Source: a bacterium
Lineage (GTDB): Bacteria > Armatimonadota > Chthonomonadetes > Chthonomonadales > JAMCWF01
Reading direction: 5' to 3'
DNA length: 64,000 nucleotides
NCBI GenBank assembly: GCA_021842405.1
Contig: JAKBZR010000001.1
Span: 18,865 to 82,864 of the forward strand
Below the pieces are notes generated by a model that searched no databases, was not told the DNA's origin, and saw nothing but the letters and a program-made list of their open reading frames with translations. Made by a program: the position numbers and the translations under genes. Positions 10,569 through 62,419 of the stretch are shown piece by piece (positions within the stretch are counted from its first letter, which is position 1; each line of letters starts with the position of its first letter).

Positions 10569-10738
10569 GGGAAAACTGCTTTCTGTAAACGAGATGTTCG
10601 GTTAATCGGGCGAGCGAAATGTGAAGCCCCGCCCACCGGCCGAATGATTCGTGTTGGGAGGTGCATCGGCGAATGAGCATGACCTTTTTGATGGGCAACT
10701 CTTTGAGATTATTTTATTCAATCGGGGCGGCGCAAGTC

Positions 10739-10780
10739 AATGACGAAGCGGCAGGATACACCGACTTTTTCAACAACTTC
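10739..10780. repeat. solo terminal half of the type-2 hairpin element
   Basis: aatgacgaagcggcaggatacaccgactttttcaacaacttc closely matches the right terminus at 17076-17117; it ends at the stop codon of the 10781-11713 gene. Confidence 0.6.
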
Positions 10781-11713: not shown

Positions 11714-11864
11714 ATTGGTATGATTATTGATGGAATGAGCGTATCATTAATATTGCATTACATTCGTCAATCCGATGCTCTATTCCTGCAAAGGATGGTT
11801 TTGGGGGATCGGTTCGGTTAATACGAGGCAACCTCAAGAATATGATATACTCTAACTGGAAAAT

Positions 11865-21960: not shown

Positions 21961-22509
21961 CTAAAGGTAGCGAAGCACCAAATTTTGGCTGACCACGTCT
22001 AGCTTGGAAAGGTCGCGAATTTCGAAACGATTGCCATCAATATCAGTCAGCATAACCCGATTGGTGGAAAGCTCCACCATGTTATCGCGCATGCCTCGAA
22101 CGATGTACTCCCGCTCACCGCGATCGGTTTCAACGACCCACGTCACGGATCCCCACTCTTCGACCGCGCTTTTCACTCGCTGGACGGTTGGAATGAAGTA
22201 GCGGCGCTCTAACTCTTCCTCGCACACGCGTCGGGATTCGGGATCCAATTCGTGCGGCTCGACGATAATGCCGACATCGTGCGATGCGCTGTCTAGGAAC
22301 GCGTAGTAGTGGTTCGGATCGGAGAGAGGGAAAGCGCGTAATATCATCACCCGGATGATGGATTTCTCCTCACCGATGGTCAATCGAGTTCGGCCGCCAG
22401 AGCGAAAAATCCGCACCTTTTGCGGGTCGAGAATTTCCAGATCAAAGCTATCGTTGATCGAGAAGGGGTTTTCGATCGAGGCGACCAGGGAAGAGATGCT
22501 GTTTTCCAT
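21961..22509 (-). CDS. DUF1854-like protein
   Basis: 182 aa; pattern RAFPLSDP ... WVVETDRGEREY ... TDIDGNRFEIRDLSKLD matches my recollection of DUF1854. Confidence 0.5.
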   Translation of the reverse strand: MENSISSLVASIENPFSINDSFDLEILDPQKVRIFRSGGRTRLTIGEEKSIIRVMILRAFPLSDPNHYYAFLDSASHDVGIIVEPHELDPESRRVCEEELERRYFIPTVQRVKSAVEEWGSVTWVVETDRGEREYIVRGMRDNMVELSTNRVMLTDIDGNRFEIRDLSKLDVVSQNLVLRYL

Positions 22510-22643
22510 CGTTGTTTGTCTCCTCTCAAACGCTCAACAAGACTACTATTCCCCTGTAGATATATCGGTAGCTACCCGATAATTATACCAGTTGTAGTGA
22601 TTACATTACTTCAAATCCATTTGTCCTTAATTATGGGATAGAT

Positions 22644-24446
22644 ATGAATTCACCGGTTTTGAACTCCAAGACGGCTTCCATCGCAACTGACAGCCAGAAA
22701 CGTTGGGCTAGTATCTACAATTCGATTCCGTTGGCTCAAATTCCCGATCATTATCGGATATTTACAGCGATGCCGTTCTTGTCCAATTATTTAGAACGGG
22801 TTAAACAATATTGTCCAACTGGTGGGCGGGTGCTTGAAACTGGGATCGGATTTGGTTATGGGGCGATTTGGGCGGCGAAGCGAGGCTTCCAGGCTGAAGG
22901 GATAGATTACAGCGAGGATATTGTGGATCGTGCCAATCTCATTGCTCTTCTTCTAGGCGCTCGGGTGGTCTTTCGGTACGGCGACATGTTTGAGTTGACG
23001 AGGTATATCGAAGGACCTTTTGATGTAGTTTTTCATCAGGGGGTACTCGAGCACTACGATGATAGTTCGATACGAACTCTCCTAGAACAACAGCTTCGAG
23101 TATCCAGCACCGTCATTTTTAGCGTTCCATCGAAGGATTATCCATTTGAGCGAGAATTCGGCGACGAGAGATTGATGGGAGTGGAAGAATGGCGAGATAT
23201 CCTCGCCCCGTTTAATGCTGTAGAAATTTGCGCATACGGAGATCCCGCATTAGGCGCCAAAGAGCATATTCTCGCTGTGCTTCGCGGTCAAATTTCAACC
23301 TCGGCCCGTCAGTCGGTTAGACCGATGTTTCTCTGGAAGGCACCCCTTTTAGATACTAGTGGCTATGCGGAAGAAGCTCGCCGGTTTGTTTGCGGTTTGA
23401 CGCGGATTGGAGTTCCAGTAGCCGCGCGGCCAATCAATTGGAGCAACCGGCATGCTGATCTCGAAGATCATGAGAGACGCCTTCTTATTCGAGCAATTAG
23501 TCGGCCTGAGGCAGCCGGCGGGGTGCATGTTTCTCATATTTTCCCTCCAATGTTCACTCGTGAGAGTAACGCCGCCCTTAATATCGGGCGAACAATGTTT
23601 GAAACCGACCGTATACCGGCCGATTGGGTTGCACCTTGCAACCAGATGGATCAAATATGGGTGCCGAGCAAGTTCAACCTAGCTACCTTTGCCAATTCTG
23701 GAGTGGAAACCGATAAATTAAAAGTGATTCCCGGTGCGATTAATTCGACCAATTATGATCTCAAGCTGGAACCATTACCTGTTAATGGACGGCGCGGCTA
23801 TAACTTCCTTTCCGTTTTTGACTGGAGCCTCCGTAAAGGTTGGGATATTTTACTGAGGGCTTACCTCGAGGAGTTTCAGCCGGAGGAAGATGTGGCATTG
23901 ATCATCAAGACCTATTCCTCACTGGGATGGTCTATCCAACAGATTGTGGGGGCCGCTTCCCAGGCCATTCTTGGACTCGGCTTTAACTTGAACCATATCC
24001 CTGACATCGTTTTTCATGATGTGCAACTTAACTGGATGGAGATGCTACGACTGTACCGCGCCGCCGACTGCTATGTGATGCCCTCTCGGGGTGAAGGATG
24101 GGGACGGCCTTATATGGAAGCGATGGCAATGGGTTTGCCGGTTATCGGAACCGGATGGAGCGGTAACACCGAATTTATGCATTCGAAAAATTCATATTTG
24201 ATCGAATTTGATATTTTGCCGGTTTCAGATGCGGCCTGTGCTGAGGCACCTAATTTCCGAGGCCATCAGTGGGCGGAGCCTCGAATTAGCCACTTAAAAA
24301 ACATGATGCGGTTCTGTTTCAACAATCGCGTCGAAGCAAGGGAAGTGGGTGCACTTGCACGAGAAGAAACAATCGGTAACTATTCAGAGGTGACGGTCGC
24401 TAAAAATATATTGGCTCAACTTTCTGCTGATGTAAACCTATCTTAA
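22644..24446 (+). CDS. fusion protein: class I SAM-dependent methyltransferase + GT4-type glycosyltransferase
   Basis: 600 aa; SAM motif VLETGIGFGYG near residue 65; GT4 motif SRGEGWGRPYMEAMAMGLPVIGT near residue 480. Confidence 0.75.
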   Translation: MNSPVLNSKTASIATDSQKRWASIYNSIPLAQIPDHYRIFTAMPFLSNYLERVKQYCPTGGRVLETGIGFGYGAIWAAKRGFQAEGIDYSEDIVDRANLIALLLGARVVFRYGDMFELTRYIEGPFDVVFHQGVLEHYDDSSIRTLLEQQLRVSSTVIFSVPSKDYPFEREFGDERLMGVEEWRDILAPFNAVEICAYGDPALGAKEHILAVLRGQISTSARQSVRPMFLWKAPLLDTSGYAEEARRFVCGLTRIGVPVAARPINWSNRHADLEDHERRLLIRAISRPEAAGGVHVSHIFPPMFTRESNAALNIGRTMFETDRIPADWVAPCNQMDQIWVPSKFNLATFANSGVETDKLKVIPGAINSTNYDLKLEPLPVNGRRGYNFLSVFDWSLRKGWDILLRAYLEEFQPEEDVALIIKTYSSLGWSIQQIVGAASQAILGLGFNLNHIPDIVFHDVQLNWMEMLRLYRAADCYVMPSRGEGWGRPYMEAMAMGLPVIGTGWSGNTEFMHSKNSYLIEFDILPVSDAACAEAPNFRGHQWAEPRISHLKNMMRFCFNNRVEAREVGALAREETIGNYSEVTVAKNILAQLSADVNLS

Positions 24447-24447
24447 T

Positions 24448-26697
24448 ATGATTGGCGAGGATAATTGGGTGCGCGTACTATTGAACCAATGTTACTTTCT
24501 GCCAGAACTACAAGCTGGAAGATACTTAGAAGGTTGCCCCCACGAAATAATTGCTATTGGGAGTAATTATCACCATTCATCACGATTAAATTCTAATCTA
24601 AATTTTAAATGTCTTAAGGATGATCTACCCTCAGATTGGTGGCCTGATATCTATATCCATTGGAGTCCGGAATATAACCCTGTCCCAGTCGGTATTGAAG
24701 AATTGCAATGTTTTAAAGTAGTGGTTGTAGGTGATTGGTATTTGGCCGGTCAGATTTTGAGCCATATAGAATCAGAATTTGATCTTTGTTTTGCCAGCGA
24801 AGCTGGGTGCATCAACCTGCGTAAATTGGGGATTGAGCCGGTGGAGCACGCCTTACTTTGGGCCTACAACCCATCTTTACACCAACGCATACCCGAAATG
24901 GTTCGTGATCTGGATATCTCCTTCGCCGGCAATTTTAATCACGATGTTCAGATAACTAGAGAACGATGGTTGGCGCGCATTGCCCGTCTATCATCACGTT
25001 ATCGGGTGCGTGTTGACACCGGTGTTTACGGGGAAGGTTATAACCGGTTACTGAATCGATCAAAAATCGCATTTAACCGAAGCATCACAGGTGAGTTGAA
25101 TATGCGATCCTACGAAGCGGCAGCCTGCGGCGCCCTGCTGTTCATTGAGGAGTCCAATGCCGAAGTCACTCAGGTACTCAGTCCGGGCGACGAGTGCATT
25201 CTTTATAATGAAAACAACTTTGAAGATTTGGTTGATTACTATCTTTCACACGAGGAGGAGCGGCAAAGAATTGCGGATGCCGGCTACCGGAAGATTCAAG
25301 GTCATACCTATGCACAACATCTTGCGGATATCGTGTCCATCGCCGAAAAATACATGCAGATGGATCGAAAGCCTAGGAAGTTTGTAGATATTCCAGTTGG
25401 TGTGCGGCATACCAATTTAGCCATGCAGTGGGCGCTTGGCCAAAATACCACCACCGCCGACCGTGCCAGTCAACTCCTAGAAAAAGCGGCTCGATTACGC
25501 CCCCATGATTTTCGGGTTTGGCTGGCGCTGGCCCATCAGCGAGTTTCAAAATGGCAAGACAATCCAAAAAGCGCCTCCGCATCCGTATGGCTGACTGAGG
25601 CTAGAAATTCCGCGCTGAAGGCGTTGAGGCTGTATCCTGAGTCGGTCAATGGGCGATGCGCTCTGGCCTATCTTGCCTCCTTGAGCGAAGATTTGATTGC
25701 CGCTGAATCCGAGCTGATCGCCGCGCTTTATTTAATGGATAACCCGGATTTTCACCTCGATCAATTGAGCGGTCCGCTGATTGATCGAAAATTCGACGAG
25801 TTCAATACCAAATGGGAAATGCTAAACGCATCTTTACCCAAAAGCGATCCTGATTTCTTGCCGAAAGCAAAATCCCTTTTCAGGTGGCGAATATTAACGG
25901 ATCTCTATGATGTTGCATGGAAACAAAAGCGCTTTTCAAAGGCGCTCTCCTTCGCACGGGAGGCGGTAGGGTTGGAACCAACCTCCGGTAAGTCGCATTA
26001 TATGTTGGCGCGAGCACAGCGGGCGCTCGGTTTGAGCGACAAAGCAGTTTCAAGCTACCGAAAAGCACTGGAGTTTATCCCACTTCACCCCGAGGTCTGG
26101 ATTGAAACCATCAACCTGCTGTTCACGCTGGGTCGGCATGCGGAGTGTTTGGCTGCCTGGGACGAATTGGTCAAAATCATCAATGGATGCCCGCCGTTAG
26201 AGCCCCTCAAAGACCTGCTGGCCGATACAATCCACCGCAGCCGAGAATTGGTCAGTTCCGGCGGGCAAGATCAAAATCAGAAGGCGATCGCTCCCGATCG
26301 GCATCGATTCATCGTTATATCGGACCTCAGTGCTCCGGAAAGCTGGCAGCCGGTGATCACTGCTTTTGCGCGACGATTTGGGCCGTCGGACCGCATTGAT
26401 CTGCTCCTCCGTTTTGAGAACTCGGGCAGAACGCCAACCCATGTTTTGCTAGAAAAAATAGACCGCTATATCAGTGATGAGCTCCATCTAAGCACGGACA
26501 ATATTGCGAACATCATTATTATCGCGGAAGAGATGAGCCCGGATGATTATTGGAAGGTCATTCGGGTAGCCGATACGTTCATCGGCGATCACTCTACGTT
26601 CGGCAGTGACATTGCGCATGCGATGGAGATTCCAATTATACCCGCCGAGGATTTACTCATCTATCAAATTCCTCAGCGATTGAAGGATGCGGCTTAA
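24448..26697 (+). CDS. CgeB-like glycosyltransferase domain + TPR repeats + C-terminal domain of unknown function
   Basis: 749 aa; starts 2 nt after the previous stop; SKIAFNRS...YEAAACGALLFIEE...YYLSHEEERQRIADAGY resembles the CgeB/DUF3880 family; TPR-like helices mid-protein. Confidence 0.6.
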   Translation: MIGEDNWVRVLLNQCYFLPELQAGRYLEGCPHEIIAIGSNYHHSSRLNSNLNFKCLKDDLPSDWWPDIYIHWSPEYNPVPVGIEELQCFKVVVVGDWYLAGQILSHIESEFDLCFASEAGCINLRKLGIEPVEHALLWAYNPSLHQRIPEMVRDLDISFAGNFNHDVQITRERWLARIARLSSRYRVRVDTGVYGEGYNRLLNRSKIAFNRSITGELNMRSYEAAACGALLFIEESNAEVTQVLSPGDECILYNENNFEDLVDYYLSHEEERQRIADAGYRKIQGHTYAQHLADIVSIAEKYMQMDRKPRKFVDIPVGVRHTNLAMQWALGQNTTTADRASQLLEKAARLRPHDFRVWLALAHQRVSKWQDNPKSASASVWLTEARNSALKALRLYPESVNGRCALAYLASLSEDLIAAESELIAALYLMDNPDFHLDQLSGPLIDRKFDEFNTKWEMLNASLPKSDPDFLPKAKSLFRWRILTDLYDVAWKQKRFSKALSFAREAVGLEPTSGKSHYMLARAQRALGLSDKAVSSYRKALEFIPLHPEVWIETINLLFTLGRHAECLAAWDELVKIINGCPPLEPLKDLLADTIHRSRELVSSGGQDQNQKAIAPDRHRFIVISDLSAPESWQPVITAFARRFGPSDRIDLLLRFENSGRTPTHVLLEKIDRYISDELHLSTDNIANIIIIAEEMSPDDYWKVIRVADTFIGDHSTFGSDIAHAMEIPIIPAEDLLIYQIPQRLKDAA

Positions 26698-26889
26698 GAA
26701 GTTGTTGAGAAATGCTGTAACTCCACCGGGTCGTCATTCCGGGACCGCGAAGCGGAACCCGGAATCCAGAATATCAGCTTTCAGGTGCACCAGTAGGCAA
26801 AGGACTGGATTCTCGCCATCCACTCCACTGGAGTGGAGCCATGCGGGAATGACGAAATGGCGATCATCAGCGAATTTTTCAACAACCAC
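26693..26889. mobile_element. type-2 MITE-like element between two glycosyltransferase genes
   Basis: termini cttaagaagttgttgagaaat / atttttcaacaaccac; 59 bp (26802-26860) match 35584-35642 with 2 mismatches. Confidence 0.65.
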
Positions 26890-26918
26890 TCAAACGATGA
26901 TTAGGCGGTGGATAAAGA

Positions 26919-29900
26919 TTGTGTGAACCGGTGATACCCAGTAAGCAGGTTTTAAAGATTAACTGGGAGGGCGCATTTCTGGCGCGGCACAGCCTGGCGC
27001 TTGTCAATCGAGAGCTGGTGCTGGCCTTGCTGGAGAACGATGACCTCGATATCCGCATCAATGATGTGGAACCGGCCGCCCTCTCTCCCTATTCATCGCC
27101 GGAATTGAGGCGGCTGGCATCCCGATTCGGCATTTCGCACCTCGTGCCGGACATAACCGTTCGTCACCACTGGCCGCCGAACCTCACGTTGCCGAACTCG
27201 GGTAAGCTCATCCTTATTCAGCCCTGGGAGTACGGCGCCTATCCGAAGGATTGGGTCAGTGCAGTCGGAAGCACGGTGGATCAGCTTTGGGTACCCTCGA
27301 ATTACACGCGGGAAAGCGCGATCGCAAGCGGAATTGCGCCTGAGAGAGTGGTTGTCGTACCGAATGGTGTAAGGACGGATATCTTTCACCCCGACGTAAC
27401 GCCGATTTCACTGCCCACTTCAAAGCATTACAAGTTCCTATTCATTGGGGGAACGATTGCACGCAAAGGCATTGACCTTTTGTTGCAGGCCTATCAGCAA
27501 GCTTTTTCTGCCCAAGACGACGTTACCTTAGTGATCAAGGATTTCGGCGCCCAAACGTTTTATCGGGGGCAAACGTCGTCATCTCAAATCCAGGAAGCCA
27601 TGTCACGTCAGAACGGCCCGGAAATCGTCTATTTGACCGACGATTTACCGGAGGATTCGATGCCGAAGCTTTATGCGTCGTGCGATTGTCTGGTTCACCC
27701 ATATCGAGGGGAAGGCTTTGGGCTGCCGATCGCGGAGGCCATGGCCAGCGGATTGCCGGTTATTGTGCCGGATAAGGGTGCATCCCGCGATTTCACGGAT
27801 GAACATACCGCAATTTTGGTACCGTCTCAAAAGGTTGATTTTGACGAGAACCGGGTCGGCCAAATAATAACCAGTGGAAATCCATACTGGTACGAAGTGA
27901 ATGTCGGTGAGCTTGCCGATAGAATGCGTTCCATCTATGAGAATCCAGCGGCCTATCAAGAGACAGCGATTCATGGTTGCCGGAATACCCAAGCCAATTT
28001 TACCTGGCGTCAGGCAGCCGATAAAGCGGCGGCATCTTTGCTGACCCTCTTTGAAGCGGCGGCGGCCAAATCGGAAAGATTACGGACATGGGAAGTCAGA
28101 AAACAAGAGGCCATCCGACTGACCCGGTCGGGCGAGTGGGAATCGGCGATTACCTTGGTTCAATCCCTGCTGGATGAGCGGCCAAGAGATGACGATCTGT
28201 TAAACGCATACGGTGTGGCGCTATACCGGACGGGTGAGAGGGAGCAGGCGCTGAAGCTGTTCAAACGGAACGCGGAGATATCGGCATTTCCGCGCGATTT
28301 CCTGCACAACCTGGCCTTTTTACAGTGCGAGATGGGTGATTGGAACAATGCGTTGCAAAACGCCATCAAAGCATATCAGATTTCACCGGAAAATGAAGAT
28401 GTAGGAAATACCTTGCGGCGCGCAATGCGGGGTGCAATCGCCGATACCCGAAACGCACGACGCACTCATAAAAGGATTGAATATAAAACGAATAGTGTAA
28501 AAAGTGATACCGTTCGGACTGATCTCATCCGGAGGGCGCGGCAACTGTTGCAAAACGGTCGCGCCTCCATAAATGAGAACGGAGAAGGCATAAAGGATCT
28601 CCATCACGCTAAGCCTCGCATCTCGCTGTGCATGATAGTAAAAAATGAGGAGCAGTTTTTGGCGGGCTGCCTGGATAGCGTGGCCGGAGCGGTGGATGAG
28701 GTCATCATTGTGGATACGGGGTCCACCGATGACACTATCGCCATCGCGGAACGATACGGAGCGAAGATACACCATTTCAAGTGGATTGATGATTTTGCGG
28801 CCGCGCGCAATGTCTCACTGCAACATGCGACTGGCGATTGGATTTTATGGCTGGACGCGGATGAGCGTTTGATGAGTGATTCGGCGCATACGGTCAGGGA
28901 GCTCGTCTCAAGCGTCTCGGAGAAGCAGGGGGGATACGTTTGCCGAATTCGTAATCGGATCAACTCTTCCAATGTTGAACGCTCCGGCGACTATGTTTGG
29001 CACAGTGCGTGCCGTCTATTTCGGTGCCATCCGGCGATTCGCTTTGAGCAGCGGATCCATGAGCAAAATATGCGCACTATCGTGGCGGCCGGATTTAGCT
29101 GGGCGGAATGTGGCATTGAAATTGATCATCTCGGTTATACGACCGAGGTGATGACGGATCGCAACAAGCGGGAACGTTTTATTAATATGTTAACCCGTGA
29201 AATAGAGGAGGGGGTTGATCCGGAATTTCGGGGATTTCAGCTTTTCAACCTGGGCAACACCTATTTCGTGGTTGGTGAATATGAAAAGGCGATACCCTAT
29301 TTTGAACAATCGGCTGATCATATATCCCTGAATAATGAATACGCTGCGCTGCTCTTCTCGGAGTGGGCGAGCGCACTCTATTTCGTAAACCAAATTGAGG
29401 AAGCTCTCAAAGTTTGTGACCGGGCGGACGCAGTGGGTATCCGACATCCAGAGATACGGTTCCAACGGGGTCATATCTATTTGGCAAAAGGGGATACGCT
29501 GCAAGCCGAATTTGCCTTTCGAACCGCCATTGAAATGGGGATGGAACCCAATGCCCATTTCGCCGGTGATGAAGGTTCCTGGCGCCATAAAGCCCATTAT
29601 GGCTTAGCGATGGTTGCACTATGTCGCTGCGACTATCAATCCGTCGTTGATTACTCGAGCGAGGCGCTGGCATTGAAAAGTGATTTCAATGACGCATTGA
29701 TGTCTCGATCGCAAGCATTGAATTGCTTGGGGCGGAAAGAAGAGGCCATTGATGATCTGAGCCGTGTCCTCGTATCAAATCCGAGCTATCTAACCGCCCA
29801 TCGTGATCTGGGGTTCATCTTGATGGATATCGGCCGGAGCAGCGAGGCGTTACCGCACCTGCACGAGGTCTTGAAATGGGGTGAGCCTGATATCGAAGTG

Positions 29901-30362
29901 ATGGCAAAGCTGGCTGACTGCGCTGAAAAACTGGGGCAGAACGATATTGCGCTCAGCGCCCATCAGAAATTATGCAAGGCAATGCCTCAATCATCGGCTC
30001 CGCGCGTCAACCTGGGACGGTTTTATGCAAAAAATGGAGATTTAGGAAATGCACTCGCCGCCTACGCAGAAGCAATTGGGCTCGAGAAAGATTCGGCGAA
30101 TGCCTATTTTAATATGGCCGATGCGCTCTACCAGCTCGGCCGATACCAGTTGGCGATTGATGTGCTTCAGACGGCGTTGAAATTGGAGCCAAGCCGAGCG
30201 GAGGGCTATTTCGTTTTGGGCAACTGTTATTTTCGCCTTGGAGCGAATCAAGCGGCAGCGGCGGCCTACCAAGTCGCGCTATCGTTTCGCGCGGAATACC
30301 CGGAGGCGCAGCACAATCTAAAGTTGGCTGTAGCCGGCGTTGCAAATTTAGAGGCGGCTTAA
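26919..30362 (+). CDS. giant GT4 - TPR - GT2 - TPR multidomain glycosyltransferase
   Basis: 1147 aa; GT4 motif YRGEGFGLPIAEAMASGLPVIVP; GT2 motifs ISLCMIVKNEE, VIIVDTGSTDDT, WLDADE; long TPR tracts; TTG start (GTG at 26931 is an alternative). Confidence 0.75.
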   Translation: MCEPVIPSKQVLKINWEGAFLARHSLALVNRELVLALLENDDLDIRINDVEPAALSPYSSPELRRLASRFGISHLVPDITVRHHWPPNLTLPNSGKLILIQPWEYGAYPKDWVSAVGSTVDQLWVPSNYTRESAIASGIAPERVVVVPNGVRTDIFHPDVTPISLPTSKHYKFLFIGGTIARKGIDLLLQAYQQAFSAQDDVTLVIKDFGAQTFYRGQTSSSQIQEAMSRQNGPEIVYLTDDLPEDSMPKLYASCDCLVHPYRGEGFGLPIAEAMASGLPVIVPDKGASRDFTDEHTAILVPSQKVDFDENRVGQIITSGNPYWYEVNVGELADRMRSIYENPAAYQETAIHGCRNTQANFTWRQAADKAAASLLTLFEAAAAKSERLRTWEVRKQEAIRLTRSGEWESAITLVQSLLDERPRDDDLLNAYGVALYRTGEREQALKLFKRNAEISAFPRDFLHNLAFLQCEMGDWNNALQNAIKAYQISPENEDVGNTLRRAMRGAIADTRNARRTHKRIEYKTNSVKSDTVRTDLIRRARQLLQNGRASINENGEGIKDLHHAKPRISLCMIVKNEEQFLAGCLDSVAGAVDEVIIVDTGSTDDTIAIAERYGAKIHHFKWIDDFAAARNVSLQHATGDWILWLDADERLMSDSAHTVRELVSSVSEKQGGYVCRIRNRINSSNVERSGDYVWHSACRLFRCHPAIRFEQRIHEQNMRTIVAAGFSWAECGIEIDHLGYTTEVMTDRNKRERFINMLTREIEEGVDPEFRGFQLFNLGNTYFVVGEYEKAIPYFEQSADHISLNNEYAALLFSEWASALYFVNQIEEALKVCDRADAVGIRHPEIRFQRGHIYLAKGDTLQAEFAFRTAIEMGMEPNAHFAGDEGSWRHKAHYGLAMVALCRCDYQSVVDYSSEALALKSDFNDALMSRSQALNCLGRKEEAIDDLSRVLVSNPSYLTAHRDLGFILMDIGRSSEALPHLHEVLKWGEPDIEVMAKLADCAEKLGQNDIALSAHQKLCKAMPQSSAPRVNLGRFYAKNGDLGNALAAYAEAIGLEKDSANAYFNMADALYQLGRYQLAIDVLQTALKLEPSRAEGYFVLGNCYFRLGANQAAAAAYQVALSFRAEYPEAQHNLKLAVAGVANLEAA

Positions 30363-30396
30363 TGCTAATTAGGATGGAAAATATACGCGGTTACCC

Positions 30397-30424
30397 TAAA
30401 GCAATTCTCACGGCATACCGATAA
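30397..30424 (+). promoter_or_regulatory. sigma28 (FliA)-like promoter upstream of flagellin
   Basis: TAAA (30397-30400), 16 nt, ACCGATAA (30417-30424) versus consensus TAAA-N15-GCCGATAA; about 140 nt upstream of fliC. Confidence 0.5.
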
Positions 30425-30565
30425 TCGTTGTGAACACAATTTGGGTGTGCGCCGATCCAAAAAATCTGTAGCTGCACGGCGCAGTCTCAGCGGGATGCTG
30501 GGACGTATGCGAGCGTAAGCGACGGGTGATCCGTCCTTATTGCACGATTTCAAGGAGGAGTATAG

Positions 30566-32032
30566 ATGAGTTTAGCCATCAACACAAATGTCTCGGCGCT
30601 GACGGCGTTGTACAATTTGAACCAAACCGAGCCAGCGCTGCAGACCGCGATCCAACGACTCTCTTCCGGCTTGCGAATTAACTCCGCGGCCGACGACCCG
30701 GCAGGCCTCATCATTTCGGACCACCTGCAATCCCAAATCGGCGGCCTTAATCAGGCGATCAACAATGCGCAAAACGGAGCGAACTTGATCAAGACGGCGG
30801 AGGCGGCGCTCGGCCAGGTCAGCTCGTTGCTGGACAGCATCAACCAGCTTGCGGTGAACGCGGCCAACACCGGCGTCAACGACACCAACATGGTGCAGGC
30901 CGACCAGTCTCAGATTCAATCGGCCATCCAGAGTATCGATTCAATCGCAACACAAACTCAGTTTGCGGACAAGAACCTGTTGGATGGGACTTCCGGCGTT
31001 ACTTCCAACGTGACGAATACGGCCGATATCGCCGGCATCAGCATCGGCAGCGCCTTTGACGGATACCAGACGGCGAGTGGAAACGTCACGATGACGGTAA
31101 CGACCGCCGCTGCGCGGGCTTCGGCCAACGGCTCCTCGGCGGTGGTAAGTTATGGATCGCTCTCCTCAACCATCGGCACGAGTGGAACGATTGTCATTAA
31201 CGGGGCATCCATCGCGGTTTCCTCAACTGACACGGTCCAAAGCTTGCTGGACAAGATCAACGCGGTGACGCAGCAAACCGGTGTTACCGCAAACTACGAT
31301 TCAACCAATCAAGTGATTGATCTAGCGCAATCAAACTACGGCGCCAACTTCAAAATCGTGGAGTCGGAGAGCGGCACATTCATTTTCGGCACTGCGGGAA
31401 CGTCGGTAGTGGGGACCAATGCCGTTGTCAGCGCTTCGGCTCAGGCCATGGTCAACGGCACTGCAACCACTGAAACCGTGACCTTTACCGGCGGCGTCAA
31501 TTCCACCGATTCCGGATTGTTGGTGAAAGACAGCGCCGGCAACTCGATCCTGTTGACCGAGGTAGGCAATTCAACATCTACCTCCAACGCGACCGTCGGA
31601 TCGGTCACAACCGGCAGCGTTCAGTTCCAGGTTGGAGCCAACTCGGGCCAAACGGTGAACATCTCGTTGGGGAATGTGCAGACCAATCAGCTTGGCACCA
31701 CCGCAGTAGCCGGCTTGAACCTGCGGACGATCAACGTTACGACTGCCCAAGGAGCCAGCGATGCGATGCAAGTGGTGCAACAGGCGCTCACGCAAGTTGA
31801 TACGCTTCGGGCGAAAATGGGGGCATTCGAGACCGATATTCTCAACAGCAATGTTCAGTCACTGGGTATTGCGGTTCAGAACTTGTCGGCATCGGAGTCG
31901 CAGATCCGCGATGCCAATATTCCGCAGGAGGTCATGAATATGACGAAGTACAGCATCCTGCAGCAATCCGGCATTTCGGTGCTTGCTCAAGCGAACAGCT
32001 TGCCGCAGGCATTGCTCAAACTGTTGCCCTAA
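30566..32032 (+). CDS. fliC: flagellin
   Basis: 488 aa; N-terminal MSLAINTNVSALTA...RLSSGLRINSAADDPAG and conserved C-terminal helix ...SILQQSGISVLAQANSLPQALLKLL; Ser/Thr-rich centre. Confidence 0.95.
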   Translation: MSLAINTNVSALTALYNLNQTEPALQTAIQRLSSGLRINSAADDPAGLIISDHLQSQIGGLNQAINNAQNGANLIKTAEAALGQVSSLLDSINQLAVNAANTGVNDTNMVQADQSQIQSAIQSIDSIATQTQFADKNLLDGTSGVTSNVTNTADIAGISIGSAFDGYQTASGNVTMTVTTAAARASANGSSAVVSYGSLSSTIGTSGTIVINGASIAVSSTDTVQSLLDKINAVTQQTGVTANYDSTNQVIDLAQSNYGANFKIVESESGTFIFGTAGTSVVGTNAVVSASAQAMVNGTATTETVTFTGGVNSTDSGLLVKDSAGNSILLTEVGNSTSTSNATVGSVTTGSVQFQVGANSGQTVNISLGNVQTNQLGTTAVAGLNLRTINVTTAQGASDAMQVVQQALTQVDTLRAKMGAFETDILNSNVQSLGIAVQNLSASESQIRDANIPQEVMNMTKYSILQQSGISVLAQANSLPQALLKLLP

Positions 32033-32059
32033 GCAAAATCGAAGCTCGCAGGGTAATTC

Positions 32060-32095
32060 GGCAGGCTCCATTCTATTCGGTAGGGGGAGCCTGCC
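32060..32095 (+). terminator. strong hairpin between fliC and fliD (no U-tract)
   Basis: GGCAGGCTCC (32060-32069) pairs with GGAGCCTGCC (32086-32095), 16-nt loop, 28 nt after the fliC stop. Confidence 0.35.
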
Positions 32096-32151
32096 ACATC
32101 AACACGAGGCGGCATTCAGCGGTTAATTGGATCAAGTGAAAGGAGTGAATT

Positions 32152-34479
32152 ATGGCAGGAAGCGGCATCACCTTTACCGGATTGAGCAGCGGGATTAACT
32201 GGCAATCCATCATTCAACAGATGCTGACGATGGCTCGCGCTCCGGAGAAGGTCTATCAACAGCAAGAACAAACCCTCATCAATGAGCAGACCGCGCTGGG
32301 GAAGTTTCAGGCCAGCTTGACCGGCCTTCAATCGGCCGCCAATTCACTCAACCAGCAAAATGCCTTCAATTTGGTGACGGCGAGCAGCAGCAACACTTCC
32401 ACCGCCACCGTATCCGCCAATGCAGGTGCTCAAACCGGAACTCACACCCTCGTGGTGAATCAACTTGCACAGGCGCAAAAACTGGGGTCCATCGCTCAAT
32501 CCAGCCAAACTAATCCGCTTGGCGTGAGCGGGCAAATCGTAATAAACGGCCATGCGATCACGGTGCAAAGCTCCGATACGCTGCAGACTCTGGCCGCAAA
32601 CATTAACAACGCCAATGCGGGCGTGACCGCCTCCATTATCGAAACCGCACCTAACTCCTACAATCTGATATTAACCGCCAACAACTCTGGAACGGCAAAC
32701 GAGATCAGCCTCTCCGATGTAGGGTCAGGAACCATTTTGCAGAGCACGCTCGGATTGATCGGCAGCGCCGAAGCGGTTGCAAACCCGATTACGAATGGCG
32801 CTGGATCGGCCCTCTTCAGTGACAGCTCCACCAGCATCGGCACCTTACTGGGGATGACATCGCCCACTTCAGGCACCATTCAGATCAACGGAACGAGCGT
32901 CTCCATTGATTTTTCGACCGATTCATTGACCAGCATCGCCAATAAAATCAACTCGGCCGGCATATCGGGAGTCAGCGCCGCCGTCATTGCGGTGACGAAT
33001 CCCACGACCGGTGCAGCCGAGCAGCAGCTTCAGATTACCGGCAGCACCACGCCGACCTTCACCGATTCCAATAATATTTTGGCGAATTTAGGGATACTGC
33101 AAAACAGCGTCAGCAGCTCGCAGCTTCAGGCGGCGCAAGATGCTAACTTCACATTGGATAATTTATCCATTACCCGAAGCAGCAATACTGTGACCGACGT
33201 CATTCCAAACGTTACCCTAAGCCTGTTATCGGGTGGGGGCGCAACGTCAAACATAACGGTCAATCCCGATACGAGCACCATGCAGCAAAATATCACCGGT
33301 TATGTGAATGCCTTTAACTCGATGGTGGATACCTTGCAATCGCAGGCGAACTATGATCCCACCACCAATGTAACGGGGCCGCTGTTTGGCGAAAGCACGA
33401 CCCAAAATGTACTCAATGAGCTGGTGAACCAGGCCACGTCCAGCGTTTCGGGGTTGCCCTCCACTTTGAGTACTTTAAGCCAGATCGGTATAACATTAGA
33501 TCAGAACGACCATCTGGTGGTTAACAGCGCGACGCTTTCCAATGCGCTGACGACCAATCCCAATGGCGTGGCAGCCCTGTTTCAGGCAACTGGTACCACC
33601 ACCGATTCGGCAATCACTTACGTGTATAGCACCAATAAAACACAGGACTCAGGCTCAGCGGGTTATGCCATCAATATCACCCAGCCGGCCACCCAAGCGA
33701 CCGCATCCGCCACCGTCGCCCAAACGAGCGCCAATTCCAGTCAAGAGACATTGACGTTCAGCGGAACCTTAATCGGCTCAAATCCCTATTCGATCACGTT
33801 GAATTCAACCAATACGCTGTCCGATACGGTTGCGCAGATCAATGCGGACCCAACATTATCGCCTCTGTTGACCGCCTCCATTGTAAGCGGTGAGCTGAGC
33901 CTGCAATCGAAGGCGTATGGATCGAGCGGAGATTTCACGGTCGTTTCAAGCCAAGCCGCCGCCTCCAACAACTCCGGCATCGGCACCACACCGATCAATG
34001 CAACCGGATTGGATGTAGCGGGCACTATCAATGGGGAGGCGGCAACCGGCAACGGCCAGTACCTGACCGGCAATTCAGGAAACGCAACCACCGATGGTCT
34101 TGAGATCAAGGTCAATACTACTGTGGCGGGATCGCATGGATCCATCGTATTCAGTCAGGGTGTGGCCGATCAAATGACCAACTTTATCAGCAGCGCCACC
34201 GATCCGCTATCCGGCTCGTTGACCGAGCTCAACAATTCATTAAATACGCAAGTCCAAGACATACAAAATACGATCCAAGATATTGAAAAACAGGTAGCGG
34301 CTGAAGCAACCATGTTACAGCAGGAGTTTGCCGCAATGGAGATGTCGGTTGCACAGCTTCAGCAAGCAGGAGCCAGCCTATCCTCATTGACCGGGCTGAG
34401 CTCGTCGAGCAGCTCCAGCGGCAGTGGGAGCTCGACCGGATCTTCGCCTTCATCATCGAGCTCGACCAGTGGTGGTTAA
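32152..34479 (+). CDS. fliD: flagellar filament capping protein
   Basis: 775 aa; FliD N-terminus GITFTGLSSGINWQSIIQQM; poly-Ser C-terminal tail. Confidence 0.9.
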   Translation: MAGSGITFTGLSSGINWQSIIQQMLTMARAPEKVYQQQEQTLINEQTALGKFQASLTGLQSAANSLNQQNAFNLVTASSSNTSTATVSANAGAQTGTHTLVVNQLAQAQKLGSIAQSSQTNPLGVSGQIVINGHAITVQSSDTLQTLAANINNANAGVTASIIETAPNSYNLILTANNSGTANEISLSDVGSGTILQSTLGLIGSAEAVANPITNGAGSALFSDSSTSIGTLLGMTSPTSGTIQINGTSVSIDFSTDSLTSIANKINSAGISGVSAAVIAVTNPTTGAAEQQLQITGSTTPTFTDSNNILANLGILQNSVSSSQLQAAQDANFTLDNLSITRSSNTVTDVIPNVTLSLLSGGGATSNITVNPDTSTMQQNITGYVNAFNSMVDTLQSQANYDPTTNVTGPLFGESTTQNVLNELVNQATSSVSGLPSTLSTLSQIGITLDQNDHLVVNSATLSNALTTNPNGVAALFQATGTTTDSAITYVYSTNKTQDSGSAGYAINITQPATQATASATVAQTSANSSQETLTFSGTLIGSNPYSITLNSTNTLSDTVAQINADPTLSPLLTASIVSGELSLQSKAYGSSGDFTVVSSQAAASNNSGIGTTPINATGLDVAGTINGEAATGNGQYLTGNSGNATTDGLEIKVNTTVAGSHGSIVFSQGVADQMTNFISSATDPLSGSLTELNNSLNTQVQDIQNTIQDIEKQVAAEATMLQQEFAAMEMSVAQLQQAGASLSSLTGLSSSSSSSGSGSSTGSSPSSSSSTSGG

Positions 34480-34525
34480 TCAGGGGATGAGCTGGTCTGC
34501 GATCATATAAGCGTTTGGAAAGGAT

Positions 34526-34960
34526 GTGCGTTTCTCTATGGCAGTTTCTCCGCCGAAAGCCGGATACCGGGCTTACTTGCGCCAGCAGGTTGAGGCAGCA
34601 ACTCCGTTAAGGCGCGTTTTGATGCTGTATGATGGGGCGCTCCGATTCATCTCAGTGGGGCGCCGCTGCATCGAGGAGAAGAGCTACGAAAAGCAAAACG
34701 AAGCCATCCAAAGAGCACAGGCGATAATCTTTGAGCTAATCTCCTCGCTCAACCAAGAGATTAGCGGTGAGATTAGCGGCAATTTGCTCACCATCTACAC
34801 CTATATGTTGCGCCAACTCATCGAGGCGAATATCAAAGATGATCCGACAAAGCTGGACGAGGTAACAAGAATGCTATCCGAACTGCGGGCAACTTGGGCT
34901 GAATTGGAAAAGGGAATGGATTCGGCGATTGTAAAAGGGGCGGGCGAGCATGAATCCTGA
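34526..34960 (+). CDS. fliS: flagellar export chaperone FliS
   Basis: 144 aa; YLRQQVEAATPLRRVLMLYDGALRFI typical FliS core; start may be the ATG at 34538. Confidence 0.85.
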   Translation: MRFSMAVSPPKAGYRAYLRQQVEAATPLRRVLMLYDGALRFISVGRRCIEEKSYEKQNEAIQRAQAIIFELISSLNQEISGEISGNLLTIYTYMLRQLIEANIKDDPTKLDEVTRMLSELRATWAELEKGMDSAIVKGAGEHES

Positions 34961-35282
34961 GCAGGCGCTGACGCGACTGGAACAACTGGCAAAAGAGCAT
35001 CTGGCCGCTCTGAATCGGAGGGATATCGGTCTGGTGCTACGGATCTGCAAGCTGTACCAGCCGACTCTCTTTTTCTTACGCTCGGCGCCCTTAGCCGATA
35101 ATCCGGAAAATCGAAAGCGTATGATGGCCGTCCAGCATATGCTGGACGAGTGTGAGGTGCGGTCACAAATCGAGCTAGGTCGCATAACTCAGAAGCTCAA
35201 GAAAAGTGCGCTCGGCCGTCGCCAACGATCCGCTTATAAAGCCGTGGCTGCTCCTCAATCGTTTATGGATGCATCCTATTGA
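34950..35282 (+). CDS. hypothetical protein in the FliT position
   Basis: 110 aa; start overlaps the fliS stop by 11 nt; call is positional only (fliD-fliS-fliT order as in Bacillus). Confidence 0.4.
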   Translation: MNPEQALTRLEQLAKEHLAALNRRDIGLVLRICKLYQPTLFFLRSAPLADNPENRKRMMAVQHMLDECEVRSQIELGRITQKLKKSALGRRQRSAYKAVAAPQSFMDASY

Positions 35283-35326
35283 TCGCTGTTATGGCCGAAG
35301 AATTTCTTTTCCGGCAAAGCCCAAGA

Positions 35327-35672
35327 AAGCATGTTGGAAAATACTTTAGCACGCATTGGGTCATCATTCCGGGCAAGAAAAGTGGGTAAGAGTTCATTTC
35401 CCTGGGAATGATTTATAGCAGCATTGGTCGCCCCCCACCCCAACCCTCCCCCACGAGGGGGGAGGGAGTTGATAATCGCGGTAGGGGTAAGAGCTTGCTA
35501 CCTAAATTACCCAGAGAACTAACTCATTCAAAAGTGGGACACGGAATCCAGGAAATCAGCATCCCAGACTACCCATAGGCTAGGGACTGGATTCCCGCCA
35601 TCCACTCCACTGGAGTGGAGCCATGCGGGAATGACGTAATGGTAGGCGCTCCTGTGATTTTTTCAATAACCC
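35327..35672. mobile_element. type-2 element carrying a nested type-1 insertion
   Basis: aligns with 26693-26889 on both sides of the 35387-35529 insert. Confidence 0.65.
35387..35529. mobile_element. type-1 MITE-like element (143 bp) flanked by a 9-bp direct repeat
   Basis: aaaagtggg at 35378-35386 and 35530-35538; termini taagagttcatttccctgggaat / (rc) gaatgagttagttctctgggtaat; central hairpin ccctccccc-acg-aggggggaggg. Confidence 0.75.
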
Positions 35673-35939
35673 CGTAGGAGCATGTACCGACGTAGGAATG
35701 AACCGACCGCCGGATAAAAAATCACCGAACATAACGGATTCGGGACCTGCTGAATTAATAATTCTTATTGACGGCCGGTTATTCCAACCACCACCATCAA
35801 AGTCCGCCCAGCATAGCGATGTGCCCAGGGCGAGTGGCCGCCCGAGATGGTCTATCTTCGATAATTTCTATGTGATAAATAACCCTCATGGCAGGAATAC
35901 TGTAAGTAGGAGTAACAGTCATCCAAGGAGGGGACCTGA

Positions 35940-36365
35940 TTGAAACTGGCAAAAGAGAGTTGGATATTGGTCGTTATATCTATAGCCGACCTGATCATCA
36001 CTTTAGTTTTATTGACGAAGGGAGCTGTTGAAGCAAACCCCTGGATGAAAAGCTATTTGATTATGGGGGTCGGATACTTTATACTGGTAAAAGTGATGTT
36101 TGTGGTGGGGCCGATTGCAATATTGGAATGGGCAAGGCGCCATCGTCCGCAATTTGTCAAACAGATGTCCCGGTTGGCCATCGCGGCCTACCTGACATCC
36201 TATTTCTCCTTTATGGTGCGATACAATGTGATACCACTCAACCGATCATCGGTGCCGTCAAGCCAGATCGCTGCGATTCTCTCGATGGGCAATCAATCTT
36301 CCTCTAAAATGAACATTGAATCTTCCAGCTCGATCTGGGTACGCCGGTATTGGGGAAATCGGTGA
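35940..36365 (+). CDS. DUF5658-like small membrane protein
   Basis: 141 aa; TM helices and EANPWM motif; AAGGAGGGG SD before the TTG start. Confidence 0.5.
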   Translation: MKLAKESWILVVISIADLIITLVLLTKGAVEANPWMKSYLIMGVGYFILVKVMFVVGPIAILEWARRHRPQFVKQMSRLAIAAYLTSYFSFMVRYNVIPLNRSSVPSSQIAAILSMGNQSSSKMNIESSSSIWVRRYWGNR

Positions 36366-36440
36366 CGAATTAAAAGGCAGAGTGTCAGGTGGCGATGACC
36401 GATCGTTTTCAATAGGATAGGTTGATCGTATAGGATGGTA

Positions 36441-37133
36441 TTAGCAGTCGGGGTGACTCATGCGCGTTGTTCCGGCCGTTTTGCCAATCCGGATGCTTCG
36501 AGACCACTCTCTCAGTCGCTCCATAATTCCATCAGCCCACAGATCAATCGCCTCGTAAGTGAACCAGAGCAAAAGGGCAAAGATAACTATTGCTACAGTA
36601 AGCGAGGTATTTTGCGGAATTCTGGCGATCGCTTGAAAAATCGGCCTTGGGTTGGTGATGACCTCCCAGGAATTAAATCGCAAAATGAGACCGAGGTACA
36701 CTCCGATCGAAACCACCAGAAAAAAGGGGTAGGCCAGTACGGGAAACGTCCAGCCCACGATTCGGCACGCTCGCTCGATCGGCCGAATTGCAAGCGTGAA
36801 GCAGAGCAGCCCCATTCCGCTGTAAATGAGATAAAAGAGTGCTGAGGTGCTCAGCTTGAATAGTGCGGCATGATCTGAATTCACGTGCTGATACGTCGGG
36901 CTGTGGGTTATCCGGCTGAGGTAGTGGCGCCATTCGGTCAACAGATAGCAAGAGTTGGGCAGAAAGGCAAGCCAAGTCAGTGTAATGATGATGAGCAACG
37001 GCAAAATCCGAATCCTTTTGCCGGCGGGCGTTATCTGAATAAGCCCCCAAATCGTATAGCCGAGGCCGACCGGAATGAGCGCTAAAAAAAGATTCCACAT
37101 CACCCAGATGGGTGGGCGAGAATACAGGATCAT
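36441..37133 (-). CDS. DUF1361-like polytopic membrane protein
   Basis: 230 aa; multiple TM helices; WNLFLALIP N-terminal motif; overlaps the upstream GT2 gene by 4 nt. Confidence 0.5.
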   Translation of the reverse strand: MILYSRPPIWVMWNLFLALIPVGLGYTIWGLIQITPAGKRIRILPLLIIITLTWLAFLPNSCYLLTEWRHYLSRITHSPTYQHVNSDHAALFKLSTSALFYLIYSGMGLLCFTLAIRPIERACRIVGWTFPVLAYPFFLVVSIGVYLGLILRFNSWEVITNPRPIFQAIARIPQNTSLTVAIVIFALLLWFTYEAIDLWADGIMERLREWSRSIRIGKTAGTTRMSHPDC

Positions 37134-38035
37134 TGAACGTTAATTGACCTACCACCGGTAAGGATTCGTTTCAAATGGGAGCCGATATGCCGGGCTTCAC
37201 TTTTTAAGGTGCCGAGCCAGGAGAGCGGACCGATAATCAGCTTTGTGAGAAGGCTGCCGTTCTTCCGATAGTATAGCCGTTGACTTCGATAAAATTGCCT
37301 CGCCATCTCACGGCTCCGTTGCCTCACGCTGCCCATCCACTGGTGGATGACTACCGCCTCCGGAATTAAATATACCTTCCATCCGGCCCGTATCATCCTG
37401 CGGCACCAATCCACCTCCTCGTAAAACATGAAAAAATCCTCATCCAAAAGACCGATTTGCTGAATGGCGGTTCGGCGTACCATTATGCAAGCGCCGGAGA
37501 CCTGCTCCACTTCGATCACATCCGGTAAATGTCCCTCCATAGTCTTGTGGTCAGACCCCTCAACTAAAAGAGGTGCCGGGATCGGCTTTTTGCGAATACC
37601 GAGCAACCGCCTTATCTCGGTCCCGATATTGGGGAGCGGCCCACCGTTTCCCTGCCGCGATCCATTGGGAAAGATGAGCGACGGCCCAGCGGCGCCTGCT
37701 TCCGGATAGTGGTTAAGCCGGTCCACCATACAACTTAACGATTCTGGAAGCGGCTTGGTGTCCGGATTCAGAAGCACGATGAACCGTCCCTCCGCGTGCT
37801 CAATGGCCTGATTGCAAGCTCGGCTGAAGCCGAGATTGGCGCTGTTTTTAATCAATTGAACGGTAGGAAAATATTGAGAGACCATTTCAGCGCTGCCATC
37901 TTGGGAATCGTTATCCACTACGATCGCGGTGGAAGATAATCCTTCGGCGGCGGTCGAGAGGGACCGCAAGCACTCCCGCAATGAATCGCGCGTGTTAAAA
38001 CTGACGATAATGATCGTGAGGTCGGTGGTGGCCAT
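37130..38035 (-). CDS. glycosyltransferase family 2
   Basis: 301 aa; IIIVSFNTRDSL, VVDNDSQDGS and ACIMVRR motifs. Confidence 0.85.
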   Translation of the reverse strand: MATTDLTIIIVSFNTRDSLRECLRSLSTAAEGLSSTAIVVDNDSQDGSAEMVSQYFPTVQLIKNSANLGFSRACNQAIEHAEGRFIVLLNPDTKPLPESLSCMVDRLNHYPEAGAAGPSLIFPNGSRQGNGGPLPNIGTEIRRLLGIRKKPIPAPLLVEGSDHKTMEGHLPDVIEVEQVSGACIMVRRTAIQQIGLLDEDFFMFYEEVDWCRRMIRAGWKVYLIPEAVVIHQWMGSVRQRSREMARQFYRSQRLYYRKNGSLLTKLIIGPLSWLGTLKSEARHIGSHLKRILTGGRSINVQ

Positions 38036-38095
38036 ACAATTACGCGCTCTTCACCAGCCGGAGTCTGAATTTGAAACTGACTTCGTTTCCACCGC

Positions 38096-61873: not shown

Positions 61874-61935
61874 CCGCGCAATTGATTAAGCCATCCATTG
61901 TGGGGTCGTGTGAAGTGAAAGGTAAGGAGAAAGGT

Positions 61936-62388: not shown

Positions 62389-62419
62389 TTATAAAATGAG
62401 ATGATTCGGGGAGCGGGAT

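Follow-up and report, generated by a model that had tools for sequence, protein, structure and literature searches.

A 64,000-nucleotide (nt) stretch of contig JAKBZR010000001.1 (GenBank assembly GCA_021842405.1), referred to here as the window, carries three large glycosyltransferase (GT) genes on its forward strand upstream of the flagellar genes fliC, fliD and fliS. The window also matches a contig of a public metagenome-assembled genome, GCA_027392485.1. Named relatives of the locus belong to Chthonomonadales, in the phylum Armatimonadota. A first-pass annotation of the letters alone had described three co-directional open reading frames (ORFs) of 600, 749 and 1147 amino acids (aa) that end 203 bp before the flagellin gene, and had proposed them as a candidate flagellin glycosylation island. 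The lengths and coordinates of these genes, termed here ORF1, ORF2 and ORF3, agree with that description (Table 1), with 203 nt between the ORF3 stop codon and the fliC ATG. The domains originally called for each protein were recovered when Pfam annotation was run; together the trio holds four GT domains and one methyltransferase, no transmembrane-like segment is found in any of the three, and the EX7E and DXD motifs are intact. The proposal of a flagellin glycosylation island is itself supported by homology of ORF3 to the glycosyltransferase GmaR, by cross-phylum enrichment of flagellar genes beside its relatives, by a sigma-28-type promoter candidate, by gene fusions and by the soluble character of the proteins with their intact motifs.

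Table 1. Features of the glycosyltransferase and flagellin locus, in window coordinates (S-adenosylmethionine, SAM; tetratricopeptide repeat, TPR; untranslated region, UTR; miniature inverted-repeat transposable element, MITE)
Feature	Position	Strand	Description
ORF1 promoter candidate	22554-22583	+	sigma-28 (FliA)-type, CTGTAG-N16-CCGATAAT, 90 nt upstream of ORF1
ORF1	22644-24446	+	600 aa; SAM-methyltransferase + GT4
ORF2	24448-26697	+	749 aa; CgeB-like GT-B + TPR + C-terminal Rossmann-like domain
Palindromic element	26694-26893		MITE-like, ~200 bp, occupies the ORF2/ORF3 gap
ORF3	26919-30362	+	1147 aa; TTG start; GT4-TPR-GT2-TPR
fliC promoter	30396-30425	+	sigma-28-type, CTAAAG-N16-CCGATAAT
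fliC 5'-UTR hairpin	30484-30504	+	GGA in apical loop; CAGCGGGAUGCUG in the window, CCGGCAGGAUGCCGG in relatives
fliC	30566-32032	+	flagellin, 488 aa; Pfam Flagellin_N and Flagellin_C
fliD	32152-34479	+	filament cap, 775 aa; Pfam FliD_N, FliD_C and Flagellin_IN
fliS	34526-34960	+	flagellin export chaperone; Pfam FliS, E = 1e-38
Small ORF after fliS	34950-35282	+	110 aa

ORF1 joins a methyltransferase to a glycosyltransferase. The class I SAM-methyltransferase domain (Pfam Methyltransf_25/23/11) spans aa 46-174 (nt 22779-23165) and agrees with methyltransferase matches in the PDB; its nearest named models, BchM and the oligosaccharide methyltransferase MftM, both remain below cutoff. The C-terminal half, in which Pfam places Glycos_transf_1 (GT4-type) at aa 453-531, is a complete GT4-type GT-B domain (aa about 216-600, nt 23289-24443) with an EX7E motif at aa 484-492 and GT4 matches in the PDB, and it is 45-53% identical to stand-alone or otherwise fused orthologues in relatives. 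ORF2 begins 1 nt past the ORF1 stop codon, or 22 nt past it with an alternative GTG start; the longest ORF starts at 24448 (749 aa), as compared with 24469 (742 aa) in the public annotation. Pfam assigns to it Glyco_trans_1_2 (CgeB-like, PF13524; aa 156-296, E = 8e-24) and TPRs at about aa 480-580. An AlphaFold2 model of ORF2 (predicted local distance difference test, pLDDT, 89.7; predicted template modeling score, pTM, 0.90) resolves a GT-B domain (aa 1-305, nt 24448-25362), a TPR solenoid (aa 317-612, nt 25396-26283) and a third, previously unannotated module, a Rossmann-like alpha/beta domain (aa 619-749, nt 26302-26694). Foldseek neighbors of this model were OGT, SPINDLY, SdgB, BshA and MshA, with whole-chain template modeling (TM) scores so low that the matches were used for fold class only. 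About 40 full-length ORF2 homologues were found, which share invariant residues in the GT core.

ORF3 is the largest of the three proteins. Its start at 26919 (1147 aa) compares with 26931 (1143 aa) in the public annotation, and the N-termini of orthologues (MRVL... and MPL.I...) favor the shorter forms of both ORF2 and ORF3. Pfam places GT4 at aa 74-369, TPR/BTAD at aa 374-451, Glycos_transf_2 at aa 569-689 and further TPRs from aa 770 to 1131. In the AlphaFold2 model (pLDDT 90.8, pTM 0.54), two rigid halves, each consisting of a GT and a TPR arm, are joined by a disordered linker (aa 544-559; module coordinates follow the 1143-aa numbering). Module A comprises a GT4 domain (aa 1-356, nt 26931-27998; EX7E at 261-269) and a helical/TPR arm (aa 359-547, nt 28005-28571), and module B comprises a GmaR/SunS-like GT2 domain (aa 564-745, nt 28620-29165; DAD at 642-644) followed by a TPR superhelix of approximately 11 repeats (aa 746-1142, nt 29166-30356). 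By phmmer, aa 565-763 of ORF3 align with residues 8-200 of the 204 in the GmaR catalytic domain (PDB 22ao; E = 2e-32), with the motifs IVKNEE, DxxIVDTGSTD, DADE, IHEQ and H-GY in common, and SunS in the PDB is matched at E = 3e-21. The best structural neighbors in Foldseek were ThuS/SunS (TM about 0.6-0.7 over the target) and the TPR domain of OGT. Neither the EX7E motif nor the D-A-D of the GT2 domain varies among 41 orthologues. The first-pass annotation had regarded a GT4-TPR-GT2-TPR polypeptide as unusual, which was not borne out: full-length orthologues number more than 90, with lengths of about 1,150 aa and 36-45% identity, and larger fusions also exist. A Pfam match to GT4-conflict overlaps generic GT4 matches and was not read as a sign of a defense system.

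No NCBIfam model reaches its cutoff for ORF1, ORF2 or ORF3; none of the three is a member of a named family. The ORFs scanned over the 64 kb of the window include no nucleotide-sugar pathway gene, in line with the original remark that pseudaminic and legionaminic acid genes are lacking, and no ORF scanned there matched Maf (MAF_flag10/DUF115, PF01973). Pfam scans of the operon gave no flippase, polymerase, lipid-carrier GT or oligosaccharyltransferase. Rfam yielded no match within 22000-36500, and a scan of the operon for sigma-70 promoters and intrinsic terminators returned nothing above shuffled expectation.

The surroundings of ORF3 relatives were compared at 82 loci totaling about 1.3 Mb, 80 of them from a scan that kept one genome per species and two added to it. 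Within at most 10 kb, fliC, fliD or fliS was present at 33 of the 82 loci, and at 18 of the 28 with flanks of 5 kb or more to either side. At least eight phylum-level lineages are represented among the positive loci, which belong to Chthonomonadales, Verrucomicrobiota, Bacillota, Chloroflexota, Gemmatimonadota, Acidobacteriota, Syntrophobacteraceae, Baltobacteraceae and Ignavibacterium. Chance would give about one such locus if, as we estimate, a genome of roughly 4 Mb has 1-3 flagellin loci; measured against that estimated rate, the enrichment of late flagellar genes beside ORF3 relatives is roughly 30-fold or more. In seven loci of Chthonomonadales type (the window, L006, L007, L012, L018, L026 and L085) fliC starts 203-400 bp past the ORF3 orthologue. 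Recurrent linkage of GT genes to flagellin genes across taxa, a general feature of flagellin glycosylation islands, is thus found here.

A candidate promoter of the sigma-28 (FliA) late-regulon type, TAAA-N15/16-(G)CCGATAA, lies upstream of the operon. Its -10 element is perfect and its 22-nt CT-to-CCGA spacing is that of the fliC promoter, counterparts of which (CCCTAAn-N15/16-CCGAnAAT) precede fliC in L006, L007, L012, L018, L026, L084 and L085. With a position weight matrix (PWM) trained solely on eight fliC promoters, the ORF1 site scored 12.0 bits (region-level p about 0.01). With 9.5 bits as the minimum score in the region ahead of the first GT gene, 8 of 15 GT clusters were positive as compared with 27 of 396 control upstream regions (7%; Fisher p = 5e-6), a test that is conservative because many of the top controls are themselves promoters of fliC, fliD, cheC or ORF3 orthologues. 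Equivalent sites precede the GT cluster in L002, L021, L027, L029, L065, L085 and L087, and in some genomes the sigma-28-type site is retained where the cluster is unlinked from fliC. A weak variant, CTGAGGTT-N14-CCGATAG, found in Chthonomonas spp., L012 and L020, scored 4-7 with the PWM and was not counted as positive. A regular expression, TAAA-N15-CCGATA, applied upstream of fliC missed most Chthonomonadales promoters, which have CCGAnAAT as their -10 element and lie in gaps of about 390 bp; these were found by reading the full gap. As a separate observation, a metallophosphatase gene convergent to the GT trio in L001 (13498-14346, reverse strand), with equivalents in L011 and L016, is preceded by CTCCTG-N16-CCGACAAT, a site that scores 13 bits with the fliC-trained PWM in these three Chthonomonas genomes.

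The three-gene cassette recurs in relatives, and in other phyla its parts are found as single chains: MT-GT4-GT4-GT2-TPR in P0112 (MT, methyltransferase), CgeB-like-GT4-GT2-TPR in P0110, and GT4-GT4-GT2-TPR in P0078 and P0096. Because other phyla thus fuse ORF1 with ORF3, or ORF2 with ORF3, in one polypeptide, the fusions argue that the three window genes function in one pathway.

Taken on their sequences, ORF1-ORF3 are likely to form a flagellar-regulon operon for the cytoplasmic, stepwise O-glycosylation of flagellin before its export, a reading backed by three independent lines, namely synteny, promoter and fusions. The sigma-28-type promoter would fire the operon alongside the late flagellar genes, and the TPR arms (one in ORF2, two in ORF3) would dock the enzymes on unfolded or chaperone-free flagellin, by analogy with the glycosyltransferase FlmG. 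The GmaR-like GT2 domain of ORF3 would most likely add the first sugar, a hexose or N-acetylhexosamine from a common UDP-sugar, to Ser/Thr of the flagellin central domain, after which the three GT-B domains (ORF3 GT4, ORF1 GT4 and ORF2 CgeB-like) would lengthen it into a short oligosaccharide. One of the sugars would be methylated by the ORF1 methyltransferase domain, as has been proposed for the GT-methyltransferase fusion in the flagellin locus of Clostridioides difficile type B, and FliD may be a further target. In this scheme we infer the acceptor, the priming domain, the donor sugars, the glycan length and the role of a sugar as methyl acceptor. Transfer sugar by sugar straight onto the protein is favored because no lipid-carrier, flippase or oligosaccharyltransferase components are present.

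Several observations weigh against the assignment of the operon to flagellin. Of the close relatives whose flanks are long enough to judge, about two thirds have no fliC beside the trio. In Chthonomonas calidirosea T49, a genome in which operons are reportedly scattered, the trio is unlinked from fliC, has unrelated genes as neighbors and carries only the weaker CCGATAG variant, which is not significant alone. In the window itself the -35 element of the ORF1 promoter candidate deviates from TAAA, and the inverted-repeat element of about 200 bp between ORF2 and ORF3 could disturb their co-transcription in this genome. Flagellin loci also occur with no adjacent GT genes (L084 and L086; L085 has GT genes upstream of fliC). 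The trio is not an obligatory unit, since L085 (4894-9754) is without an ORF2 orthologue and has only a GT4 gene and an ORF3 orthologue before fliC, and since the ORF3 orthologue is the first gene in L007 (about 9968-13492), L025 and L005, where it has its own strong sigma-28-type site. Distant relatives with partial architecture occur in metagenome-assembled genomes (MAGs) labeled Akkermansia and Cytophagia, taxa not known to be flagellated, and for this reason the wider GT4-TPR superfamily is not confined to flagellar systems. Flagellins, finally, commonly have Ser/Thr-rich variable domains, glycosylated or not. The label "Chloroherpetonaceae" of L002, which had suggested a non-flagellated host, was set aside as unreliable, the same protein being labeled Chthonomonadaceae in nr.

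Occurrence of the genes away from fliC in relatives had been named at the outset as a finding that would speak against the island. The synteny search gave a divided answer, with roughly two thirds of close relatives unlinked and linkage elsewhere. As a measure of flagellar association, adjacency to fliC is too strict rather than fatal, because several unlinked clusters keep a sigma-28-type promoter and adjoin a chemotaxis (che) operon. L084 and L087 illustrate this within one 6.1-Mb genome, where the full trio (L087) lies 500 kb from fliC-fliD-fliS (L084); it is divergent from a cheC-D-R-Y-X operon, lies 8 kb from flgM and has GTAAAT-N16-CCGATAC upstream. The flgM gene is near the cluster in L085 as well as L087, and a che operon adjoins the cluster also in L012, L020, L021, L027, L085, L071 and L078. 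With many relatives unlinked, strict adjacency was replaced as a test by cross-phylum enrichment, promoter content and the che/flgM neighborhood. C. calidirosea is given as a motile species in a passage of PMC7509429.

With respect to the acceptor, the central domain of FliC (aa 143-400) contains 29.8% Ser plus Thr (77 of 258 residues) and FliD contains 28.9%, as compared with 9-15% for a set of eleven further window proteins made up of ORF1-ORF3, FliS and seven proteins of housekeeping or glycoside-hydrolase type, so that FliC and FliD are both Ser/Thr-rich, as had been stated from the translations. Neither contains Cys, and conservation of the FliC family extends along the entire protein, at 52-60% identity. 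Glycosylation within the flagellar regulon might be directed mainly not at filament flagellin but at FliD, hook-associated proteins or several exported flagellar proteins. FliD resembles the FliC central domain in composition and has a poly-Ser tail, the three separate TPR arms could recognize different acceptors, and in the distant loci L042, L058, L061 and L062 the nearest flagellar gene is fliD or fliS. We nevertheless consider a main acceptor other than flagellin unlikely: the gene directly downstream in the fliC-linked close relatives is always fliC, and GmaR, the sole characterized homologue of this GT2, has flagellin as its substrate (PMC9638930), while fliD and fliS normally travel with fliC and their proximity does not discriminate between acceptors.

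A non-flagellar product was also weighed, for example an exopolysaccharide, a cytoplasmic or cell-envelope oligosaccharide, or a pilin or S-layer protein that carries glycans, with the position beside fliC an accident of rearrangement. The GT4, GT2 and CgeB-like domains are generic and their NCBIfam matches, all below cutoff, are spread over polysaccharide enzymes; the separation of the trio from fliC in most close relatives and the distant relatives in lineages thought non-flagellated would fit such a product, as would the pilin/type II secretion system (T2SS) genes and another GT2 module in the window. Against this stand the enrichment of late flagellar genes over at least eight phylum-level lineages, the conserved sigma-28-type promoter and the che adjacency that persists where fliC is unlinked. 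In addition, the GT2 domain is of the GmaR/SunS type, which is directed at proteins or peptides, and the proteins are soluble, with no membrane, export, polymerase or lipid-carrier components, all of which makes a non-flagellar glycoconjugate quite improbable. That ORF3 is instead mainly a GmaR-like bifunctional regulator, with its C-terminal helical-repeat arm sequestering a repressor of flagellar genes and glycosylation secondary, would accord with the make-up of GmaR (GT2, TPR and an all-helical antirepressor domain; PMC9638930) and with the about 400 residues of helical repeats past the ORF3 GT2, but is very hard to credit when the GmaR alignment covers the catalytic domain only (the sole GmaR chain in the best 60 of 91 PDB matches being the 204-residue entry), the ORF3 repeats match canonical TPR/OGT-type superhelices, no MogR-like gene was recognized in the window, and the catalytic residues do not vary among the 41 orthologues.

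The trio was compared with the known systems for which it might be taken, among them the two precedents named at the outset, GmaR (GT2 and TPR; PMC9638930) and FlmG (TPR and GT-B; PMC7591256), both of which proved apt. GmaR, which O-GlcNAcylates Listeria flagellin, carries its GT2 domain ahead of its TPRs (PMC9638930). In ORF3 module B the TPR arm likewise follows directly C-terminal to the GT2, the homology runs over the solved catalytic domain with its DXD motif, and the gene is linked to a flagellin gene. Unlike GmaR, ORF3 has an extra GT4 and TPR module and works with two further multidomain enzymes, and the best 60 of 91 PDB matches include no homology to the antirepressor domain, just as no MogR gene was recognized in the window; the expected product of the trio would be an oligosaccharide as opposed to the single N-acetylglucosamine (GlcNAc) of GmaR. 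FlmG binds flagellin through its TPR domain and owes its donor specificity to the GT-B domain (PMC7591256; bioRxiv 10.1101/2022.03.25.485807). FlmG of Caulobacter and Brevundimonas, which serves pseudaminic and legionaminic acid, is a soluble cytoplasmic TPR and GT-B protein, and ORF2 and module A of ORF3 also combine GT-B with TPR. They are set apart from it by architecture, the GT-B coming first and the TPR second in reverse of the FlmG order, and nonulosonic-acid biosynthesis genes are absent from the scanned ORFs of the window.

The flagellin locus of C. difficile type B (GT1, GT2 with a methyltransferase domain, and GT3) resembles the present one in having several GT genes beside fliC and a stepwise O-linked oligosaccharide, and in its fusion of a methyltransferase (PF08241) to a GT, proposed to add and methylate rhamnose (PMC5207246); the ORF1 methyltransferase matches PF08241/PF13649 and is similarly fused to a GT. 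It differs in that its enzymes are GT2 (PF00535) proteins for which no TPR is mentioned, encoded downstream of fliC (PMC5207246), and in that the ORF1 methyltransferase is fused to a GT4. The C. difficile locus moreover has rml and FdtB-like sugar genes, whereas no sugar pathway genes were found in the window. SunS and ThuS, the best structural neighbors of ORF3, share the order of a GT2 domain followed by a helical-repeat substrate-binding domain. They modify Cys of small bacteriocin peptides, whereas FliC and FliD have no Cys and no bacteriocin-like or glycocin gene was recognized beside the operon, and the ORF3 score of 85.5 bits against TIGR04195 (SunS family) is far below the cutoff of 350. 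Eukaryotic and bacterial OGT/SPINDLY proteins use a long TPR superhelix to supply protein substrates to a GT-B domain, and rank among the closest folds to both ORF2 and ORF3. In OGT, however, the TPRs come first and are followed by a catalytic domain of family GT41, and the resemblance is mostly in the TPR part, with low full-chain TM-scores. Maf is set apart by its PF01973 domain, which no scanned ORF of the window contains. The locus lacks the defining features of Maf, FlmG and SunS and shares the catalytic-domain and TPR-order features of GmaR.

Other features of the locus touch on its expression and its neighbors. The element between ORF2 and ORF3 has 20-nt imperfect terminal inverted repeats (26694-26713 and 26874-26893) with nested inverted repeats inside and occurs as a single copy in the window. 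It is probably a MITE-type insertion within the operon, because the ORF2/ORF3 junction in relatives is an overlap or about 100-120 bp. A terminator scan revealed no terminator-like site in the gap. The reverse strand of the element would presumably encode a peptide resembling the LDSRFRGNDE-type repeats that occur in many genomes. The 5'-UTR hairpin of fliC is kept in eight loci (the window, L006, L007, L012, L018, L026, L084 and L085), where the stems differ and GGA occupies the loop in every one of the eight folds, and a second GGA lies in the fliC Shine-Dalgarno sequence (30552-30560). This layout resembles the two CsrA sites of B. subtilis hag and hints at translational control of the FliW/CsrA type; no csrA or fliW gene was recognized in the window. 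Pfam and NCBIfam give no match for the 110-aa ORF, which overlaps fliS at the end of that gene. The ORFs in the corresponding position behind fliS in L085 (E = 9e-10) and L086 (E = 4e-7) are 32% identical to it; it probably belongs to the late flagellar block, perhaps as a so far unrecognized protein of it, for instance a FliT-like chaperone.

Downstream of the flagellar genes, on the reverse strand at 36441-40708, lie co-directional genes for a DUF1361 protein (230 aa), a GT2 (301 aa) and an 870-aa protein without a family match, a block that may be a separate envelope-glycan module. A type II secretion/type IV pilus-like block at 58945-63447 encodes a GspE/PilB ATPase, GspF, a GspG-type major pseudopilin and further proteins with the N-methyl motif. 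Besides this GT2/DUF1361 module and T2SS/pilin block, the window contains his genes, ThrRS, FtsH, TilS, a MurA-like gene, MreB and glycoside hydrolases.

A full-text literature search found no paper on flagellin glycosylation in Armatimonadota, and the system is an uncharacterized but widespread version of a known kind, not a rarity. It is possible, and on balance doubtful, that the ORF1-ORF3 set represents a third, phylum-spanning class of flagellin glycosylation machinery beside Maf and FlmG. Such a class would be a sigma-28-controlled, TPR-scaffolded cytoplasmic assembly line with four GT domains and a methyltransferase on one to three polypeptides, which would use ordinary UDP-sugars to build a methylated oligosaccharide of defined structure on flagellin, and perhaps also on FliD, with no dedicated sugar-biosynthesis genes. 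Were this so, the fusions in Armatimonadota, Verrucomicrobiota, Planctomycetota, Chloroflexota and Bacillota would be natural experiments in the recombination of acceptor-binding TPR arms with donor-specific GT domains.

Flagellin O-glycosylation has been well studied for nonulosonic-acid systems (Maf and FlmG) and in a few Firmicutes, and how acceptor specificity is programmed is an open question (PMC7591256). The present family is large and uncharacterized, combines acceptor-binding TPR arms with four GT domains in various fusions in many phyla, probably uses common sugar donors, and is represented by the cassette in a cultured motile relative, Chthonomonas calidirosea. If confirmed, the assignment would extend flagellin glycosylation to Armatimonadota and Verrucomicrobiota and would provide a compact, sugar-pathway-independent system for dissecting and engineering cytoplasmic protein O-glycosylation. 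For genome annotation, it would mean that such genes, labeled "tetratricopeptide repeat protein" or "glycosyltransferase", are probably members of the flagellar regulon even where they lie away from fliC.

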